A DNA stretch of 64,000 nt, taken from positions 32,001 to 96,000 of IMG/VR virus record IMGVR_UViG_3300044701_002547. The stretch is one strand, 5' to 3'. Under the pieces are notes generated by a model. That model had not been told where the DNA came from and made no database searches. It was given only the letters and a program-made list of their open reading frames with translations. Source of the DNA: a virus. The position numbers and the translations under genes were made by a program. Of the stretch, positions 1,949 to 48,096 are shown in pieces (position 1 is the first letter of the stretch; each line of letters starts with the position of its first letter).

Positions 1949-2830
1949 ATGCCAACCAATCTTTCTACATTTTTAAGTTCTAATTTTGATGGTGCTCAAG
2001 GTACTCAAGGTATTCAGGGAACACAAGGCACGCAAGGAATTCAAGGAACTCAAGGTATTACTGGTTCTCAAGGTACTCAAGGAATCCAGGGCATTCAAGG
2101 AATCCAGGGCATTCAAGGTACTCAAGGAATCCAGGGCATTCAAGGTCTTGGTCCAACAGTAAATGTTGTTGTTTATGATACAGGTTCCAACGCAACTTAT
2201 ACTGCTCCCGCAGGATTGATACAGGCTTTGGTTCATGTAACTGGAGGCGGTGGAGGAGGTGGTGGTGCTGACGGGGCTGATACTGCCTCTGGTTCTGGTG
2301 GCGGTGGTGGTGGAGCAGGAGGAACTGCAATCAAATTATACACTGCCGCAGAAGTAGGGGCAACTGCAACTTATACTGTAGGCGCTGCTGGTGGTGCTGG
2401 TGCTGCAGCAGGCGGAACATCAGGAACCGCAGGAGGAAACAGTTTCTTTATTCCTGTTGGTGCTGGTTCTTCAATTACAGGACTTGGTGGTGCGTTAGGA
2501 TCTGGTGGAGGTGCTCCTGGTGTTGGTGCCGCTGGTCTTGGAGGACTTGGAGGTAGTGCTACGGGTGGAGATATAAATATTCCTGGTGGTGGTGGTGGTT
2601 CTGGGGCGGGTGATGATGTTGCCGAAATTGCTGTTGGTGGAGTTGGGGGGGGATCTTATTGGGGAGGAGGTGGTAGAGGAGGAGCAGCTCAAGGTGGTGC
2701 AGTTTCTGCAGGCACTGCATCTGTAACTTATGGTGCTGGTGGAGGAGGTGCTGCGAATATAGATAGTACAACTGGTGCTGCTGGAGGTGTTGGAGATACT
2801 GGTGTCATTTATATTGTAGAATATACATAA
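1949..2830 (+). CDS. Collagen-like (G-X-Q) plus glycine-rich domain protein, probable fibre
   Basis: (QGT/QGI)n triplets, then a GGGGGG-rich domain ending GVIYIVEY; ataaata at ~1903. Confidence 0.8.
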
Positions 2831-2831
2831 A

Positions 2832-3719
2832 ATGCCGACAAATCTTTCTAATTTTTTAAGTTCTAATTTTCAGGGAACTCAAGGTGTTCAAGGTATTCAA
2901 GGTACTTTGGGAACTCAAGGTATTATGGGTATTCAGGGGATTTCTGTAGTAACTCAAGGTATTCAAGGTATTCAAGGTATTCAAGGTATTCAAGGTATTC
3001 AAGGTATTCAAGGTATTCAAGGAATCAAAGGGGATCATTTATTAGGACTTCAAGTTTATACCACAGGATCTGGTGCAACCTATACTGCGCCGACAGGATT
3101 GAAGAAAGCAATAGTTTATGTAACAGGCGGTGGAGCAGGTGGAGGTGGCGCTGATGGTGCTGCTGCAGACACATCCAATGGAACTGGAGGTGGTGGCGGT
3201 GGTGCTGGTGGAACTGTAATTAAAGTTTATACCGCAGCAGAAATGGGAGCAACTGCCACTTATACTGTAGGATCAAATGGTACTGGCGGATCTGAAACAG
3301 GAGGTACTGATGGAACTGCAGGAGGAAATACTACCTTTGATCCCGCCGGAACAGGTGCAACTCTAACTGCAAATGGTGGTGCGTTAGGATCTGGTGGGGG
3401 AGCACCGTCAACTGGTGGTACTGGTCTTGGAGGACTTGGAGGTAGTGCTACGGGTGGAGATATAAACATTCCGGGTGGTGACGGTGGTTCGGGAGTAGGT
3501 AATGATGTTGCCGAAATTGCTATAGGAGGTATGGGAGGTTCATCATATTGGGGAGGAGGTGGTAGAGGAGGAGCAGCTCAAGGTGGTGCAGTTTCTGCAG
3601 GCACTGCATCTGTAACTTATGGTGCTGGTGGAGGAGGTGCTGCTAATATAGATACTAGTGCAGGATCTGCCGGTGGTGATGGAATTGGTGGTGTTATTTA
3701 CATACTAGAATACTTATAG
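2832..3719 (+). CDS. Paralogous collagen-like plus glycine-rich domain protein
   Basis: Same MPTNLS.FLSSNF start and architecture as the preceding gene. Confidence 0.8.
   Translation: MPTNLSNFLSSNFQGTQGVQGIQGTLGTQGIMGIQGISVVTQGIQGIQGIQGIQGIQGIQGIQGIKGDHLLGLQVYTTGSGATYTAPTGLKKAIVYVTGGGAGGGGADGAAADTSNGTGGGGGGAGGTVIKVYTAAEMGATATYTVGSNGTGGSETGGTDGTAGGNTTFDPAGTGATLTANGGALGSGGGAPSTGGTGLGGLGGSATGGDINIPGGDGGSGVGNDVAEIAIGGMGGSSYWGGGGRGGAAQGGAVSAGTASVTYGAGGGGAANIDTSAGSAGGDGIGGVIYILEYL
2955..3017 (+). repeat. Perfect 9-nt tandem repeat (caaggtatt)x7 encoding (QGI)7
   Basis: Read directly from the sequence. Confidence 0.95.
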
Positions 3720-3723
3720 AAAA

Positions 3724-4104
3724 ATGAGAGTTTGTCTTTTAGATACAGTTACAAAAAAAGTTATCAATGTTGTTTCTCTGAATAGTCCAGAGGAACATAA
3801 TCCAACACCAGGAATTGAAGTTGCTCCACAGCACGATGGAGATATTGGTTGGACTTGGACTGAATCTGGATGGGTTTATCCACAACCACCAGAACCAACA
3901 TTAGAAGAACTTGCAGAAAAACAGAGAGAACTTAGAGATAAGTGGTTAAGAATTTATGTGGATAAAATTAATGCAATACGATGGGAAGCATTTACTCAAC
4001 AACAAAAAAATGATTGGATTGCTTATCGCCAAGCACTCTTAGATGTTCCACAACAGGAAGAGTTCCCCAATACTATTAATTGGCCTATTCCACCTGAACT
4101 ATAA
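3724..4104 (+). CDS. Tail fibre assembly chaperone-like protein
   Basis: C-terminal W.AYRQALLDVPQQ..FP..INWP.PP motif; follows the fibre genes. Confidence 0.75.
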   Translation: MRVCLLDTVTKKVINVVSLNSPEEHNPTPGIEVAPQHDGDIGWTWTESGWVYPQPPEPTLEELAEKQRELRDKWLRIYVDKINAIRWEAFTQQQKNDWIAYRQALLDVPQQEEFPNTINWPIPPEL

Positions 4105-19176: not shown

Positions 19177-19763
19177 TGTCACCTTTTGAAACTTATCAAG
19201 CATATTTGGGAATTAAGAATCATTTCACCAATCCCAAATATGATTACTTTAAATATAAAAAAACAAGAGCAACACTTACATCATTTAACAAACGCAAAGA
19301 CCGATATTTTTTCGAGAAAACCAGTCGTAAGTATTCCGATAAAGAAATAGTAGATTTTTTAGTATCAAACTTTATAGTAGCAGATAATCCCCAAAGCATA
19401 TGGATTGGCGAAATTATCAATTCTGGAGAAAGAAACTACCAGGAATGGATGAAAAGACAGCAGAGTTTGAGTTACTTGTTCAAGGAGCAATCAACCGAAT
19501 TGTTCTCGGAAGTAAAATTAGAAGATGCTCTGAACTGCTCCAAAGGGCATCCACCAATTCTAAAAAAATTCCTGAGCGGGAAGATTTGTATTGAAACTTT
19601 GGTAATTTATGATATAATATTCCTGTTCGGGAATAAGTTTGACAGGAAACTTCTGGACCCGGTGTGGGAAACCGTAAGTTTAAAAATTAAAAAGTATATG
19701 CCGTTTCTAAATATTGATGTGTTTCAGTACAAGCGAATTTTGAGGGATATTGTAAATGAGTAG
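19176..19763 (+). CDS. gp59: Helicase loader gp59
   Basis: YLGIKNHFT..KYDYFKY, RKDRYFFEK, HPPILK. Confidence 0.9.
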   Translation: MSPFETYQAYLGIKNHFTNPKYDYFKYKKTRATLTSFNKRKDRYFFEKTSRKYSDKEIVDFLVSNFIVADNPQSIWIGEIINSGERNYQEWMKRQQSLSYLFKEQSTELFSEVKLEDALNCSKGHPPILKKFLSGKICIETLVIYDIIFLFGNKFDRKLLDPVWETVSLKIKKYMPFLNIDVFQYKRILRDIVNE

Positions 19764-20085
19764 TTTTTTTGATTCTGAACTTATTCAGGAAGAACTAAAA
19801 GAAATTCACGAACTTCAGGAGTTTATATACAAAAGTATTTTAACTTTTGGTATGATGCCCCGAGAAGACAAACTGGAACACATTGAAAAAATGACACGAC
19901 TGCTTGAAAAGCAGCGAATTATGTACACCAGACTTTCTCTTTCTGACGACCCAGAAGCGGTAGAAATGAAAGAAAACCTAAGAAAGTCAGTTGCTCTGAT
20001 GGGATTTCCACCAGAGACTGATATGAGCATTCTTTTTGGTAGTATGACAAAAACTATTGAATCACTTAAAAAGTATCTTGACTGA
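19756..20085 (+). CDS. DUF1825-like cyanobacterial-type protein
   Basis: FFDSELIQEEL, LLEKQRIMYTRLSLSDDP.A. Confidence 0.7.
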   Translation: MSSFFDSELIQEELKEIHELQEFIYKSILTFGMMPREDKLEHIEKMTRLLEKQRIMYTRLSLSDDPEAVEMKENLRKSVALMGFPPETDMSILFGSMTKTIESLKKYLD

Positions 20086-36868: not shown

Positions 36869-37042
36869 ATGGAAGTTTTCACCGTGGAAGAATTTCAAGA
36901 ACGTTTTGACGAACTGATTGAGAGAGTTGAAAACGGAGAGAGTTTAGGTATAATTGGTGAAGATGGGCGGACAGCAGTTATGATGCCTGCGGATGAGCAA
37001 CTCATACGAATATACACTGAGTTGAACAACGAAGCACCCTGA
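36869..37042 (+). CDS. Phd/YefM-like antitoxin-fold protein (57 aa), orphan
   Basis: MEVFTVEEFQERFDELIERVENGESLGIIGEDGRTAVMMP; TATAAATA at 36853-60. Not in the ORF track. Confidence 0.6.
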   Translation: MEVFTVEEFQERFDELIERVENGESLGIIGEDGRTAVMMPADEQLIRIYTELNNEAP

Positions 37043-37057: not shown

Positions 37058-37129
37058 GGGACTGTCGCCTATTGGTTAAGGCCCACTGCTTATAACGGTG
37101 TGAACTGTGTTCAATTCACAGCAGTCCTA
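37058..37129 (+). tRNA. tRNA-Ile(UAU)
   Basis: Acceptor GGGACTG/CAGTCCT, anticodon arm cactg-cTTATAA-cggtg, T arm ctgtg-TTCAATT-cacag; no complete encoded CCA. Confidence 0.88.
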
Positions 37130-37133
37130 CCTT

Positions 37134-37206
37134 GCTGGTTTAGCAATCTGGCGAATGCAATCGACTCATAATCGATGGGAGGCGAGTTCGATCCTCGCAA
37201 CCAGCA
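37134..37206 (+). tRNA. tRNA with CAU anticodon (elongator Met or Ile2)
   Basis: Acceptor GCTGGTT/AACCAGC, atcga-CTCATAA-tcgat, gcgag-TTCGATC-ctcgc. Confidence 0.88.
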
Positions 37207-37207
37207 C

Positions 37208-37236
37208 TTGACCACTACAACTCTATGAGTTATAAT
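37208..37236 (+). promoter_or_regulatory. Sigma70 promoter for the intron-containing tRNA
   Basis: TTGACC-N17-TATAAT ending 10 nt upstream of the tRNA. Confidence 0.7.
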
Positions 37237-37246
37237 GGTCTCACAA

Positions 37247-37527
37247 GCGAGTATGGTGGAATCGGTAGACACACCAGACTTATGAAAATTGAGCCTCATT
37301 TAGGAAACTTTATGAGTGTAATTCCTCAAATTCGGTGAAACCTGTAAAATGGCAATACCGAGCCAAGCATCGTAAGATGAAGGTGTAGAGACTAGACGGG
37401 GAACACCTAAACCGAAAGGTATGGTGAAGGTATAGTCCAGACCACAAACCGAAAGGGTAGTGAAAACTATAGTGGTAAGAAAATCTGTTGGGCATTGCCC
37501 GTGGGAGTTCAAGTCTCCCTACTCGCA
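37247..37527 (+). tRNA. trnL: tRNA-Leu(UAA), split; exons 37247-37281 and 37480-37527
   Basis: Acceptor GCGAGTA/TACTCGC; joined exons give caga-CTTAAAA-tctg, a long variable arm and gggag-TTCAAGT-ctccc. Confidence 0.92.
37282..37479 (+). ncRNA. Group I intron (IC3, cyanobacterial/plastid trnL type), 198 nt, no ORF
   Basis: Inserted after U34 and ends in G. AATTGAGCC start, P4/P5 TTCGGTGAAACC..GGCAATACCGAGCC, P7 AGAGACTA/TAGTCC, GNRA-capped P8/P9. Confidence 0.92.
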
Positions 37528-44371: not shown

Positions 44372-46108
44372 ATGGCAAATAATTATAGAAAGTCATTTAA
44401 TTTTAGAAGTGGCGTTCAGGTTGATAATGATAATTTTATTGTAGATCCAAATGGATTAGTCGGAATTGGTACTTCTATTCCGACTGAATTTTTTGATCTT
44501 CGTGGAAATGCAAAAATTGTTGGATTAGTTACGGCAAATAATCTAGCAGTATCTGGAGTCTCCACATTTTATAATGATGTAAAAGTAGGAACAGGAATTA
44601 CATTTAACCCTTCTACTGGGGCAGTTAATGCGACAACATTTTATGGAAGTGCTGGAGGTCTTACAGGATTTTATGCTGTTGCAATTGATGGATGGTACAT
44701 AGACATTCCCAACTCTGGAATTTTTACAACATTTAAAGTTGGTATAGGAACTACTTTTCCTCAGTATTCTTTGCAGATTGGAGAGGATCCTATAACTGGG
44801 ACTGGATTTTCTGTAGATGAATTGACAGGTAACGTATATACTACTGGAATTATTACTGCAAACTCTTTTGTTGGAGTTGGAACAGGATTAACTGACCTAA
44901 ATGCGTCGAATATTTCTTCGGGAACAATAAGTTCGGAAAGATTACCAGTTCTTCCTAATGCTAAAATTCCAGATAATTTCCAAGTTGCTGGAATTATTAC
45001 TGCCCTAGGTTCATTTAATGGAACTCTAGTTGGGATTGCATCTACAGCAAGAGATTTAACTTCTAATGCTACAATTAATATAGAAGCAGCAACTGTTGGA
45101 GTTTCTACAATTTCCACAAGACTTAGAACAAGTGGGTCAGTTGGAGTGAATACAGATGTACCTTATGCTGCTGTTCACGTTGTAGGATCATCGAGCACTA
45201 CATTACATCTTACTGCAGATACAACTAATATTACTTTAGGTAGAAGTTTAAGTCCGACGGGAAATACTGGAGGTCTTAGATTTGGTAATACGAATGGATT
45301 ATATCCTTCAAGCACAACTAGGTCTTTAGACATTATTAACTATGATACTGGAAATTTAAATTATTATTTACATTATGGAGTCTCTGGAGTTGGAACTGGC
45401 AATTTCAATTGGATATATGCTCCAGATTCAACAAATGCATTGATGACCTTGACCTATGGTGGAAGACTTGGTATAGGTATTACAAATCCAACACATAGTC
45501 TTGAAGTAAATGGATCTGCACAAGTTACATCTTTAAATGTTAGTGGAAGTGTTTATGCAACTGGTGTAGGAGCTACTGTAACTGTAAGAGATCTTTATAT
45601 TTTAGATGGTCAAAATGGTGTAGTAGATGCTGACGGATCTTCTTTGTTTGATTTACCATTAAACTTTACCTCTGGAATTTCAACATTCTATGATCTTAAA
45701 GTAACTAATTTGGGACTTTTTGAACAAAAAATTGGTATTGGAAATATAAATCCATTAGAACCTTTACACATTGGTGGTGATTATTTAATTGATCCAGAAG
45801 ATGCTGTAGTTATTAATTCTTCTGGAATTGGAATTGGAACAACGGCACTTAGATATGGAGCAGGAATTGAAGGAATTAGTGTAACAGCATTATTTGGTTC
45901 AGTTGGAGTAGGAACAACTAATCCAGATAATCCAAGTGATCCAGCTGGAACAAGAGTACGTGTAGATGGAGATGTGGCAATTAGAGCTGGAGATCTTTAT
46001 GTTGGTGTCAGTACGGCAAGGGGTGTAATATTAACATCTCCAAACGGAACAAAATATCGATTAACTGTCTCTAATACTGGAACTTTAAGTACTGTTTTAG
46101 TGCCATAA
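44372..46108 (+). CDS. Tail fibre-like protein
   Basis: Repeated VGIGT..P and GIITA motifs; LTSPNGTKYRL.V.N.G C-terminus. Confidence 0.75.
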   Translation: MANNYRKSFNFRSGVQVDNDNFIVDPNGLVGIGTSIPTEFFDLRGNAKIVGLVTANNLAVSGVSTFYNDVKVGTGITFNPSTGAVNATTFYGSAGGLTGFYAVAIDGWYIDIPNSGIFTTFKVGIGTTFPQYSLQIGEDPITGTGFSVDELTGNVYTTGIITANSFVGVGTGLTDLNASNISSGTISSERLPVLPNAKIPDNFQVAGIITALGSFNGTLVGIASTARDLTSNATINIEAATVGVSTISTRLRTSGSVGVNTDVPYAAVHVVGSSSTTLHLTADTTNITLGRSLSPTGNTGGLRFGNTNGLYPSSTTRSLDIINYDTGNLNYYLHYGVSGVGTGNFNWIYAPDSTNALMTLTYGGRLGIGITNPTHSLEVNGSAQVTSLNVSGSVYATGVGATVTVRDLYILDGQNGVVDADGSSLFDLPLNFTSGISTFYDLKVTNLGLFEQKIGIGNINPLEPLHIGGDYLIDPEDAVVINSSGIGIGTTALRYGAGIEGISVTALFGSVGVGTTNPDNPSDPAGTRVRVDGDVAIRAGDLYVGVSTARGVILTSPNGTKYRLTVSNTGTLSTVLVP

Positions 46109-46190
46109 CAACCACTTTCCAAACTGGCACACAGGGGGTCGCAAGACCCCTTTTTTGCTGCTATAATACTTTCATATTCAGCAGAGAACC

Positions 46191-47417
46191 GTGATTCAAC
46201 TCCGTCCTCACCAACAGACTGCTCTGGATGCCCTCGCTCAGCATTCTAAGGGTATCTGTGTGTTCCCGACTGGTGGTGGTAAGACCAACGTGGGAATCTT
46301 CGATGCTATGCGTGAGTTTCAGTCTGACGCCCCTAAGACCGTTGTAGTGGTTGCTCCTCGCATTCTGCTTGCCGAGCAACTCTCCAGTGAGTATCTGGAG
46401 TTCATCACTACCGTTGCTGTGCTTCACGTTCATTCGGGTGAGACGCACCACTATAGCACGACCAAACCCGCAGAGATTTACAACTGGTGCCGTCGTGCCT
46501 ACAAGCATCAACTGATTTTCACCACCTATAACTCTCTGCAGCGTCTGGTTGATGCAGATATTGAGGTGGATACGATCTACTTTGATGAGGCACATAATAG
46601 CGTTCAGCGTCACTTCTTCCCTGCCGTTGAGCACTTTGCTGCTGAGGCAAAGCGTTGTTATTTCTTCACCGCCACGCCCAAGTATTCTGTGACTGTGGGT
46701 AAGGCAGGTATGAACGACGCTGATGTGTATGGTCAAATCATCGCTAAGGTTCCTGCTCCTGAACTGGTGGAGGGTGGTTACATCATTCCCCCTAAGGTCA
46801 TCACCGCCCCGATGCGCCTCTCTGTGAAGGGTGAGGACATCGCCCAGCGTGACTGTGAGTATCTGCTCCAGATCATTCAGGAGAACCCTGTGGATAAGAT
46901 TCTGGTGTGTGCGAAGGCAACCAAGCACATCATCGGTCTGCTGTCTGAAACTGACTTTGCCCAGCAACTGGAAGAGGCAGGATACTCTGTGCTTCACATC
47001 ACCGCAAAGCACGGTGCTTTTATTGACGGTCAGAAAGTCAATCGTGAGGTGTTCTTTGATACGCTGAATGAGTGGGGCAAGGATGCCGACAAGAAGTTTG
47101 TGGTTCTTCATCACAGCATTCTTGCCGAAGGCATCAACATCTCTGCTCTGGAAGCGGTCGTGTTCCTGCGCTCTATGGACGTTGTGGGCATCGGGCAGAC
47201 GGTTGGGCGTACTCTGCGTCTTCACCCCGCTGACGCTGCTGGAATCCGCTCTGGTGCGCTTCAGGCGGGCGCTCTGGAGTCCTACACCAAGTCCTATGGT
47301 CTGGTGGTCTGCCCCGTGTTTGACCGTGCTTCTGCGGGCACTGCGAAGGCAGTCCAGAACGTCGTGGATATCATCTTTGAGCAGGGTGACGTTGCCGTCA
47401 GTGTTGTTAGGAGGTAA
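46191..47417 (+). CDS. SF2 DEAD/DEAH-box helicase
   Basis: LRPHQ, PTGGGKT, DEAH, FTATP, LAEGINI, QTVGRTLR. Confidence 0.92.
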   Translation: MIQLRPHQQTALDALAQHSKGICVFPTGGGKTNVGIFDAMREFQSDAPKTVVVVAPRILLAEQLSSEYLEFITTVAVLHVHSGETHHYSTTKPAEIYNWCRRAYKHQLIFTTYNSLQRLVDADIEVDTIYFDEAHNSVQRHFFPAVEHFAAEAKRCYFFTATPKYSVTVGKAGMNDADVYGQIIAKVPAPELVEGGYIIPPKVITAPMRLSVKGEDIAQRDCEYLLQIIQENPVDKILVCAKATKHIIGLLSETDFAQQLEEAGYSVLHITAKHGAFIDGQKVNREVFFDTLNEWGKDADKKFVVLHHSILAEGINISALEAVVFLRSMDVVGIGQTVGRTLRLHPADAAGIRSGALQAGALESYTKSYGLVVCPVFDRASAGTAKAVQNVVDIIFEQGDVAVSVVRR

Positions 47418-47418
47418 G

Positions 47419-48096
47419 ATGACTGAAGAATTAAAAATCTATGCTGAACCAATTACGTCTTTGTATTATGTAAAATCTAAAATTCCAAATAAAATATTGA
47501 ATCTAATAAACGAGGACATTGATTATCTTCTAAACAATAAAGATGAGTTTAAAAAATGGAATCAATATTTGGCTGGAAATATTTCTGAAGAATATAAATT
47601 TTCTGGGAAAAGTTATGAATTATTAGAAGAATTTGTTTTAAAAATCGCTGAAAATTATTTTTATGTTATTGAGGATGAAAAATTAAACCCATATAAAAAA
47701 TATGATCATTTTGATACATTTTTTAACAAAGAAAGGACATATATTCTTGAAAGTTTGTGGGTAAATTTTCAGAAAAAATATGAATTCAATCCCATTCACT
47801 CCCATAGCGGAGATTATTCTTTTGTGATTTGGGTTCGAATACCTTATGATCTTCAAAATGAATTGAATCAGGATAATTGTAAGAATTCAAATCAAGCATT
47901 CAATTCTTTGTTTTCCTTCTCCTTCACTTCTGCATCTGGAGATATTCAGTCTTTGACATTAGAAATAGATAAAACCTGGGAAGGTGTTATAGTAATGTTT
48001 CCATCTTGGCTTATGCACACAGTATATCCTTTTTATACTTCAGATGACTATAGAGTCTCTATTGCGGGAAATATATACCTAAGAGAAGAAATGTAA
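47419..48096 (+). CDS. 2OG-Fe(II) oxygenase (TIGR02466-like)
   Basis: WVNFQ..YEFNPIHSH, FPSWLMH.VYPF, RVSIAGN; likely start is ATG 47419, just after the helicase stop. Confidence 0.85.
   Translation: MTEELKIYAEPITSLYYVKSKIPNKILNLINEDIDYLLNNKDEFKKWNQYLAGNISEEYKFSGKSYELLEEFVLKIAENYFYVIEDEKLNPYKKYDHFDTFFNKERTYILESLWVNFQKKYEFNPIHSHSGDYSFVIWVRIPYDLQNELNQDNCKNSNQAFNSLFSFSFTSASGDIQSLTLEIDKTWEGVIVMFPSWLMHTVYPFYTSDDYRVSIAGNIYLREEM

Follow-up and report, generated by a model that had tools for sequence, protein, structure and literature searches.

The intron in the tRNA-Ile(CAU) gene of Azoarcus sp. BH72, about 205 nucleotides (nt) long and of subgroup IC3, is the textbook minimal group I ribozyme, and group I introns that lie within genes for tRNAs have been treated as a matter of bacteria and plastids. 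The trnL(UAA) intron of cyanobacteria and plastids, which is not known to carry an open reading frame (ORF), is commonly portrayed as ancient and immobile. In phages, group I introns are the textbook case of intron mobility, yet they have been described in protein-coding genes only. In this study, we analyzed a 64,000-nt stretch of viral DNA (the window), which comprises bases 32,001 to 96,000 of the 105,675-bp IMG/VR record IMGVR_UViG_3300044701_002547 (estimated completeness, 49%) and in which a tRNA-Leu(UAA) gene is split by a 198-nt group I intron. This element is very probably a functional, ORF-less, IC3-like group I ribozyme placed between U34 and A35 of the phage's tRNA-Leu(UAA), and a selfish mobile element of a phage-borne lineage. 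We take it to be like the Azoarcus ribozyme in being compact, in lacking P5abc, in having a GAAA-capped P2 and P9 and a receptor-like loop in P8, and in residing in the anticodon loop of a tRNA. Its GAAA loops on P2, P8, P9, and P9.1, together with the P8 internal loop, presumably resemble the tetraloop-receptor bracing of the Azoarcus IC3 intron. In contrast to the Azoarcus intron, it interrupts another tRNA at another position, and it is 7 nt shorter (185 nt in its relative L038).

With the Leu.3Ug class of tRNA introns (Williams 2020; Anabaena/Nostoc and plastid trnL), the phage intron shares the CUU/intron/AAAA site, the U at position -1, the omega G, and the P1-P9 core. It differs from that class in being virus-borne and 198 nt long, compared to 220 to 312 nt in the cyanobacteria that we sampled, and in having a P7 (GACUA/UAGUC) and a 3' end (..GGUAAG) that are proteobacterial-like. 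The plastid intron has been described as immobile (PMC5733544), whereas the phage lineage is also found in a short tRNA(UAA) and in versions with an ORF for an HNH endonuclease. Group I introns in phage protein-coding genes (T4 td, nrdB, and sunY, cyanophage psbA, and the DNA polymerase gene of Pf-WMP3) are, like this one, phage-borne and patchy among relatives, and they are often tied to HNH or GIY-YIG homing endonucleases, as the relatives of the window intron are to HNH. However, they belong to other subgroups, such as IA2 in Pf-WMP3 (PMC3428280), and the window intron lies in a tRNA gene. The initial annotation of this DNA, made from the letters by themselves, had called protein genes the typical home of phage group I introns, and a 2014 review indeed assigns every phage intron known at that time to a protein-coding gene, even though phages have many tRNA genes (PMC3984707). 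Devoto et al. 2019 presented introns in phage tRNAs as previously unreported and did not call theirs group I (PMC6784885); these "enigmatic" introns of Lak megaphages likewise lie in phage tRNA genes, but one is predicted to be tRNA-like and none is described as group I, whereas the window intron is predicted to be a full self-splicing ribozyme. Our searches of the open-access literature turned up no report of phage tRNA genes that harbor group I introns. This is a group I intron of a known structural kind in a place, the phage tRNA gene, that reviews call empty.

The split gene lies on the plus strand and has the following parts.

37247-37281 (+): 5' exon of tRNA-Leu(UAA), with the acceptor strand, D arm, and 5' strand of the anticodon stem, to U34; it ends in ...GACUU.
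37282-37479 (+): group I intron, 198 nt, ORF-less, IC3-like, identified by RF00028, by its precise absence from syntenic contigs, and by covariation across 54 sequences; its last base, G37479, is the omega G.
37480-37527 (+): 3' exon of tRNA-Leu(UAA), from A35 onward, with the long variable arm, T arm, acceptor strand, and discriminator A; it starts with AAAAUC, and CCA is not encoded.

When the exons were joined, ARAGORN recognized an 83-nt tRNA-Leu(taa), in which the spliced junction reads ...CCAGACUU^AAAAUCUGU... The insertion point falls between U34 and A35 of a tRNA-Leu with the anticodon UAA, exactly where uninterrupted alleles join at CTT|AAAATC, and the exons are 96.5% and 93% identical to the uninterrupted tRNA-Leu genes of the cultured cyanophages S-TIM5 and S-CAM4, respectively. 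A search with the Rfam group I intron model (RF00028, Intron_gpI; cmscan), which the initial annotation had suggested as a check, matched positions 37272 to 37461 (+) along the full model (1-253) with 63.1 bits, against a gathering score of 50 (E 1.2e-13). In alignments to syntenic contigs that have no intron (L264, L255, L357, and others), the match ends at 37282 and restarts at 37480 at the same base of the subject. Since these contigs are without exactly the 198 nt, they confirm the boundaries, 37282 to 37479, independently. The intron-less allele with the same anticodon arm, recognized by a 25-mer across the spliced junction, is present in at least 120 IMG/VR contigs. There is no ORF of 50 or more amino acids (aa) on the plus strand of the intron; on the antisense strand, it is overlapped by two mechanical ORFs (70 and 72 aa). 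These observations uphold the earlier description of a complete tRNA-Leu formed by the two exons, with an ORF-less group I intron that follows U34 and ends in G.

ARAGORN with default settings did not call the split tRNA-Leu gene on the unspliced window. When introns were allowed, it proposed a tRNA-Tyr(ata) whose intron is displaced by 2 nt; we dropped this candidate in favor of the boundaries that put U at -1 and G at omega and that are borne out by the intron-less alleles. In several GenBank records of Synechococcus phages ACG-2014j/e/i (KJ019069, KJ019089, NC_026926, and others), an uninterrupted tRNA-Leu(UAA) lies under a coding sequence (CDS) labelled "hypothetical protein," with no tRNA feature listed.

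We wrote out helices P1, P2, P3, P4, P5, P6/6a, P7 (the pseudoknot), P8, P9.0, P9, and P9.1 on the window sequence and scored them in an alignment of 54 introns that are mutually less than 96% identical. The elements of the fold are as follows.

37278-37294 (+): P1, exon ACUU (37278-37281) with the internal guide GAGC (37291-37294); C-G, U-A, and U.G pairs invariant in 54/54.
37295-37316 (+): P2 hairpin with a GAAA tetraloop; 9/9 pairs compensatory; in the minimum-free-energy (MFE) fold.
37322-37327 (+): 5' strand of P3, UUCCUC; partner 37398-37403; 99.4% of cells paired, 4/6 pairs compensatory.
37331-37362 (+): P4 (37331-37336/37357-37362, TTCGGT/ACCGAG) around P5 (37340-37342/37351-37353); P4 98.5% paired, P5 81.5% paired with a G-C/C-G switch.
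37363-37383 (+): P6/P6a hairpin with a GUAA loop; site of the HNH ORF in relatives L002 and L099.
37390-37394 (+): 5' strand of P7, GACUA; partner 37433-37437; guanosine-binding helix, pseudoknotted with P3; 99.6% paired.
37398-37403 (+): 3' strand of P3, GGGGAA, in the same alignment.
37404-37426 (+): P8 hairpin with a GAAA loop and a CCUAAA/UAUGG internal loop; 99.5% paired, outer pairs compensatory in 3/4.
37433-37437 (+): 3' strand of P7, UAGUC, in the same alignment.
37442-37475 (+): 3' domain, with P9.0 (37442-37445/37472-37475) around P9 (37449-37456, GAAA loop) and P9.1 (37458-37469, GAAA loop); in the MFE fold.

Across this alignment, 92.3% of the pair cells form standard pairs, compared to 76.1% after shuffling, and changes on both sides are seen in 35 of the 55 pairs. 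The covariation score is 0.452, compared to 0.152 for shuffled alignments (0 of 500 shuffles reached 0.452), and at most 0.107 when partners were slid by 1 to 3 columns, a control that flatters the structure somewhat since the structure was derived from the window sequence; the count of compensatory pairs is independent of that. The splice-site pair U37281.G37291 is U.G in all 54 sequences, and the terminal G is invariant. The last pair of P7 is A-U in 37 sequences and U-A in 17, and P9.0 and P9.1 are 99.5% and 100% paired, respectively, with 4/4 pairs of P9.1 compensatory. The P4 and P7 pairings that had been quoted from this one copy (TTCGGT/ACCGAG and GACTA/TAGTC) thus exist and are kept across the 54 homologues. 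The MFE fold (-49.9 kcal/mol, z = -2.3) independently recovers P2 to P6, P8, and the P9 domain. The group I core, consisting of the P4-P6 stack, the P3-P7-P8-P9 stack, and the P3/P7 pseudoknot, is present and supported by covariation, and the sequence further shows P2, no extensions, and GAAA loops on P2, P8, P9, and P9.1, as in a putative IC3 intron. We take the CCUAAA/UAUGG internal loop of P8 to resemble the 11-nt GAAA-tetraloop receptor.

The codon use of the phage bears on whether the intron is spliced. In eight neighboring structural genes, UUA is the commonest leucine codon (138 of 335, 41%), so that an intron that failed to splice from the tRNA reading this codon would be costly. Taken with the strong covariation, this makes it likely that the ribozyme is active, as had been proposed. 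A promoter-like site lies just upstream.

37208-37236 (+): sigma-70-like promoter (TTGACC, 17 nt, TATAAT), from a consensus scan with 11/12 matches, 10 nt upstream of tRNA-Leu.

Sites of this kind are not above chance one at a time, with 5 found in the region and 3.8 expected. In at least 14 diverged members of the clade, both hexamers are retained 5' of the split gene while the spacer between them varies, and we infer that they are a putative promoter of the tRNA-Leu gene. The initial annotation had credited the intron with its own promoter; the site is there, but it would belong to the tRNA gene and not to the intron.

These features suggest the following course of expression. Transcription would start at the conserved sigma-70-like promoter. 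In the pre-tRNA, exon ACUU and the internal guide GAGC would form P1, with the U.G wobble at the splice site; a free guanosine held in P7 would attack after U34, and G37479 would then occupy the same pocket. The anticodon stem and a 2-bp P10 would hold the exons together for ligation, and host processing enzymes and CCA addition would complete the 83-nt tRNA that reads UUA. Without an endonuclease of its own, this copy would spread or persist by recombination between coinfecting phages, possibly with an endonuclease acting in trans.

The distribution of the intron shows that it moves. Carriers have two unrelated tRNA(UAA) bodies, a class II tRNA-Leu of 82 to 88 nt and a short one of 73 to 75 nt without the long variable arm, and introns 97.5 to 98% identical to that of the window reside in short tRNAs that are just 60% identical to the window tRNA (L049 and L069). 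Near-identical copies (97 to 98.5%) are present in at least 9 other contigs, and both body types are scattered across the whole intron tree. We also built a phylogeny from the neighboring tail-fibre gene in 38 syntenic contigs, of which 21 carry the intron and 17 do not. On this tree, the presence of the intron needs at least 6 changes, 5 of which are forced by well-supported branches, and the tRNA body type needs at least 5. An intron that is 98% identical in a 60% identical tRNA, together with at least 6 changes in presence, means that the intron moves. Thus, it has the pattern of a mobile element, being patchy at one site and near-identical in diverged host genes; the route, homing or recombination, is one that we infer rather than observe. 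Four related introns (in L002, L066, L094, and L099) encode HNH endonucleases (Pfam PF01844/PF13392). The proteins of L002, L066, and L099 are 47 to 57% identical to one another and are inserted in different loops, either P2 or P6: L002 and L099 have theirs in P6, and that of L066 lies upstream of P3. Of the phage route for intron transfer that the initial annotation envisaged, the passage from phage to phage is borne out by these data, and a passage between phages and cyanobacteria or plastids is not.

The short tRNA(UAA) occurs at the same locus in L049, L069, L022, L007, L017, and about 40 more IMG/VR loci. Uninterrupted versions of it are labelled "tRNA-Leu" in S-CREM1, P-SSM7, P-RSM6, Bacillus phage P59, Rhodococcus phage Trina, and Lactobacillus phages.

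The intron is also common. We scanned IMG/VR with an exact pattern, the core GGTGYAGAGACTNGACGG followed 60 to 90 nt later by AAG|AAAATC, and found at least 117 matching contigs; among the matches listed, 114 rebuild a tRNA(UAA) split after U34 (script and ARAGORN). The ORF-less introns among the matches listed are 185 to 237 nt long, with a median of 200 nt, and four introns, including that of the GenBank genome L002, are 596 to 700 nt long. The smallest that we encountered, at 185 nt (L038; IMGVR_UViG_3300010354_011742), has a shortened P8 without the receptor-like loop. Introns of 193 to 204 nt were recovered from bacterial tRNA genes too. The window intron had been called unusually small, but a length of 198 nt is ordinary for the phage lineage and is matched in bacteria. 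The same-site intron is carried by the huge-phage genomes LR756501 (735 kb) and LR756511 (595 kb), and LR756503 is an equally long record with an identical match.

In LR756501.1 (L001:1494-1790), the tRNA-Leu(UAA) gene is split by a 205-nt intron, and in LR756511.1 (L002:1494-2290), it is split by a 700-nt intron with a 189-aa HNH ORF in P6; neither is annotated in its GenBank record. In Pelagibacter phage HTVC120P (L003:1964-2154; MH598807.1, about 19616-19806), two CDS, gp29 and gp30, are annotated for the capsid gene, and the unannotated gap of about 190 nt between them is 74.7% identical to the core of the window intron. To judge by this likeness, a phage protein-coding gene, that of the HTVC120P capsid, is likewise split by an intron of this lineage. 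When RF00028 was run on the homologues L001 to L003, there was no match at the gathering threshold or at E <= 0.001. Since all three align column by column to the window intron, we read this result as low sensitivity of the model and not as absence of the intron. Together, ARAGORN and RF00028 overlook most of these phage introns, an annotation blind spot that leaves phage tRNA-Leu genes uncalled or labelled as hypothetical proteins.

The occurrence of the same insertion site in cellular tRNA genes raises the possibility that the phage captured an intron-bearing trnL(UAA) from its cyanobacterial host, in which case the intron would be the vertically inherited cyanobacterial one. The site is indeed that of the cyanobacterial and plastid trnL intron, as had been noted at the outset, and the internal guide region (UUGAGCCU) resembles that of cyanobacterial introns. 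For a wider comparison, we searched one bacterial genome per species with the core motif and recovered at least 120 loci (L123-L242), of which, among the matches listed, 61 are a tRNA-Leu(UAA) split at the same site, in Alpha-, Beta-, and Gammaproteobacteria, Acidobacteriota, Vulcanimicrobiota, Bacteroidota, Chloroflexota, and Cyanobacteriota. At the other listed loci, which come from many phyla, the core breaks the anticodon loop in other tRNAs, among them tRNA-Met, Arg(CCU/UCU), Thr(GGU/CGU), His, Phe, Ile, Lys, Ser, Tyr, and Asn. These results agree with the 21 tRNA intron classes described in bacteria in a survey that did not extend to phages (Williams 2020; bioRxiv 10.1101/2020.01.27.920355). 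Several of the bacterial tRNA introns are 600 to 850 nt long and may carry an ORF. In a quick maximum-likelihood tree of 135 tRNA-Leu(UAA) introns, unrooted and from samples both chosen by exact patterns, the phage and cyanobacterial introns fall on one side of a branch (support, 97) against other bacteria, a grouping that would also fit capture from a host. Within that side, however, a long branch (0.7) sets the cyanobacterial introns apart as a clade of their own (support, 100), and the window intron lies within a clade of 22 to 23 phage introns (support, 95 to 96). The phylogeny proposed in the initial annotation was to include cyanobacterial and plastid introns; our tree, of phage and bacterial introns, covers the former, which form the separate clade just described.

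Several further observations speak against capture from a host. The cyanobacterial introns that we sampled are 220 to 312 nt long and end in ...GAGAATG, and 9/9 share a core 18-mer, GGTGCAGAGACTCGACGG, which as an exact match has 0 occurrences in 2.9 million IMG/VR contigs, a result that weighs against phages and cyanobacteria having exchanged the intron recently. The cyanobacterial P4 reads TTCAGG/CCTGAG where the window has TTCGGT/ACCGAG, and for P7 the two are GACTC/GAGTC and GACTA/TAGTC, respectively; pair by pair, these differences are compensatory, as the initial annotation had stated in regard to the Anabaena intron. In its P7 and 3' end (..GGUAAG), the phage intron is of the proteobacterial type. 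Moreover, the closest counterparts of the exons are the uninterrupted tRNA-Leu genes of phages (93 to 96.5% identity), and the same intron is found in the quite different short tRNA(UAA). We consider capture of a cyanobacterial gene very unlikely. The earlier statement that the intron matches that of cyanobacteria is overstated, and the phage intron is best read as a sister or parallel lineage rather than a recent cyanobacterial copy; given the unrooted tree and the pattern-based samples, any transfer may have gone in either direction.

Some observations weigh against our reading of the window intron as a functional, mobile ribozyme. This copy has an A.C mismatch in P1 and two U.U mismatches in P2, and ARAGORN shows a C.U mismatch at 27-43 in the joined tRNA. 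There is no endonuclease gene in the window intron or beside it; the 105.7-kb record has a single HNH gene, about 66 kb distant, whose product shows no specific relationship to the HNH proteins encoded within introns. Selection by an exact pattern biases the IMG/VR sample towards close relatives, and the pattern of presence and absence could reflect recombination of the whole tRNA locus rather than strict homing, although either way alleles are exchanged among related phages. The case for self-splicing, too, is one made from conservation. The few mismatches in P1 and P2 and the missing endonuclease ORF could be taken to mean that the intron is a decayed, nonsplicing relic and its tRNA-Leu gene a pseudogene. 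However, the core helices are all intact, the positions that are invariant in the family are present, copies 97 to 98.5% identical are found in at least 9 other contigs, changes across the family are compensatory, and the phage uses UUA heavily; of all the readings that we considered, decay is the most improbable.

A further alternative is that the intron is kept because it benefits the phage and is not a mere selfish passenger. It might delay or gate the maturation of tRNA-Leu(UAA), shield the precursor's anticodon loop from anticodon nucleases of the host, as the initial annotation suggested, or confer immunity to endonucleases of competitors that cut the intact anticodon-loop DNA. The intron exactly interrupts an 11-nt anticodon-loop sequence, GACTT/AAAATC, that does not vary among the carriers, and if other homing systems are a guide, the HNH endonucleases of related introns would cut intron-less alleles. 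tRNA-targeting defences and phage countermeasures in the anticodon loop are documented (PMC10264068), and the element is common, with a fold under purifying selection. In contrast, intron-less alleles of the same tRNA are at least equally common, gain and loss of the intron among close relatives fit a near-neutral parasite, and the spliced tRNA would be as exposed to nucleases as any other. A benefit to the phage is therefore unlikely in our view, and we retain the reading of the intron as a selfish mobile element of a phage-borne lineage. Its identity, exact boundaries, conserved fold, presence/absence polymorphism, and occurrence in unrelated tRNA(UAA) bodies are established by the data presented here.

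The genes around the locus are those of a phage. The split tRNA-Leu is the last of an array of three, the other two being as follows.

37058-37131 (+): tRNA-Ile(UAU), called by ARAGORN; Rfam tRNA 54.5 bits; first in the Ile-Met-Leu array, as in S-PM2.
37134-37207 (+): tRNA-Met(CAU), called by ARAGORN; Rfam tRNA 55.2 bits.

Phage S-PM2 has the identical order of baseplate lysozyme, tRNA-Ile, tRNA-Met, and tRNA-Leu(TAA), and its 85-nt tRNA-Leu is uninterrupted. T4-type tail and baseplate genes lie on both flanks of the locus; their products include a tail protein, a baseplate hub/lysozyme, and a tail fibre of 1799 aa. Among cultured phages, the tail protein is closest to those of cyanomyoviruses (S-SRM01, with 62% amino acid identity, and then S-SKS1 and P-SSM2). 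From this gene content, we assign the source contig to a T4-like cyanomyovirus, about half complete. A misfiled cellular contig is ruled out by the T4-like baseplate and tail-fibre genes on both sides, and an assembly chimera is ruled out by the same arrangement in more than 110 independent contigs.

The ORFs that flank the intron locus encode a DUF7294 protein, a product with a Phd/YefM-like match below the cutoff, and a phrog_4134 protein of unknown function. The second of these, a 57-aa ORF at 36869-37042 (+) just 5' of the tRNA array, matches the Phd/YefM antitoxin family weakly (23.4 bits, cutoff 29.8), and in Synechococcus phage RB11-B, a "Phd-like antitoxin" is annotated at the corresponding position by tRNA-Ile/Met. 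Elsewhere in the window, the G+C content is raised at positions 2001 to 4000 (0.467) and 46001 to 48000 (0.442), compared to about 0.31 to 0.40 in the remainder, and the GC skew is strong (0.33) at positions 2001 to 4000.

The kind of intron that is cited as ancient and immobile in trnL(UAA) is here common and mobile in phage tRNA genes, with endonuclease-bearing relatives and across unrelated tRNA bodies. This provides a concrete system for asking how tRNA introns spread among lineages, as well as a new set of natural ribozymes of 185 to 213 nt, equal to or below the size of the Azoarcus model and rich in covariation. A broader and more speculative proposal, which we regard as doubtful though possible, is that anticodon-loop group I introns are mainly stored and carried by phages rather than by cells. 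A phage-borne lineage, with an HNH gene or lacking one, would hop between tRNA genes with the GACUU/AAAAUC sequence, and even into capsid genes, and would have seeded the tRNA-Leu(UAA) introns that occur sporadically in many bacterial phyla. If this were true, the "ancient, vertically inherited" trnL intron would be one frozen offshoot of a mobile viral element.

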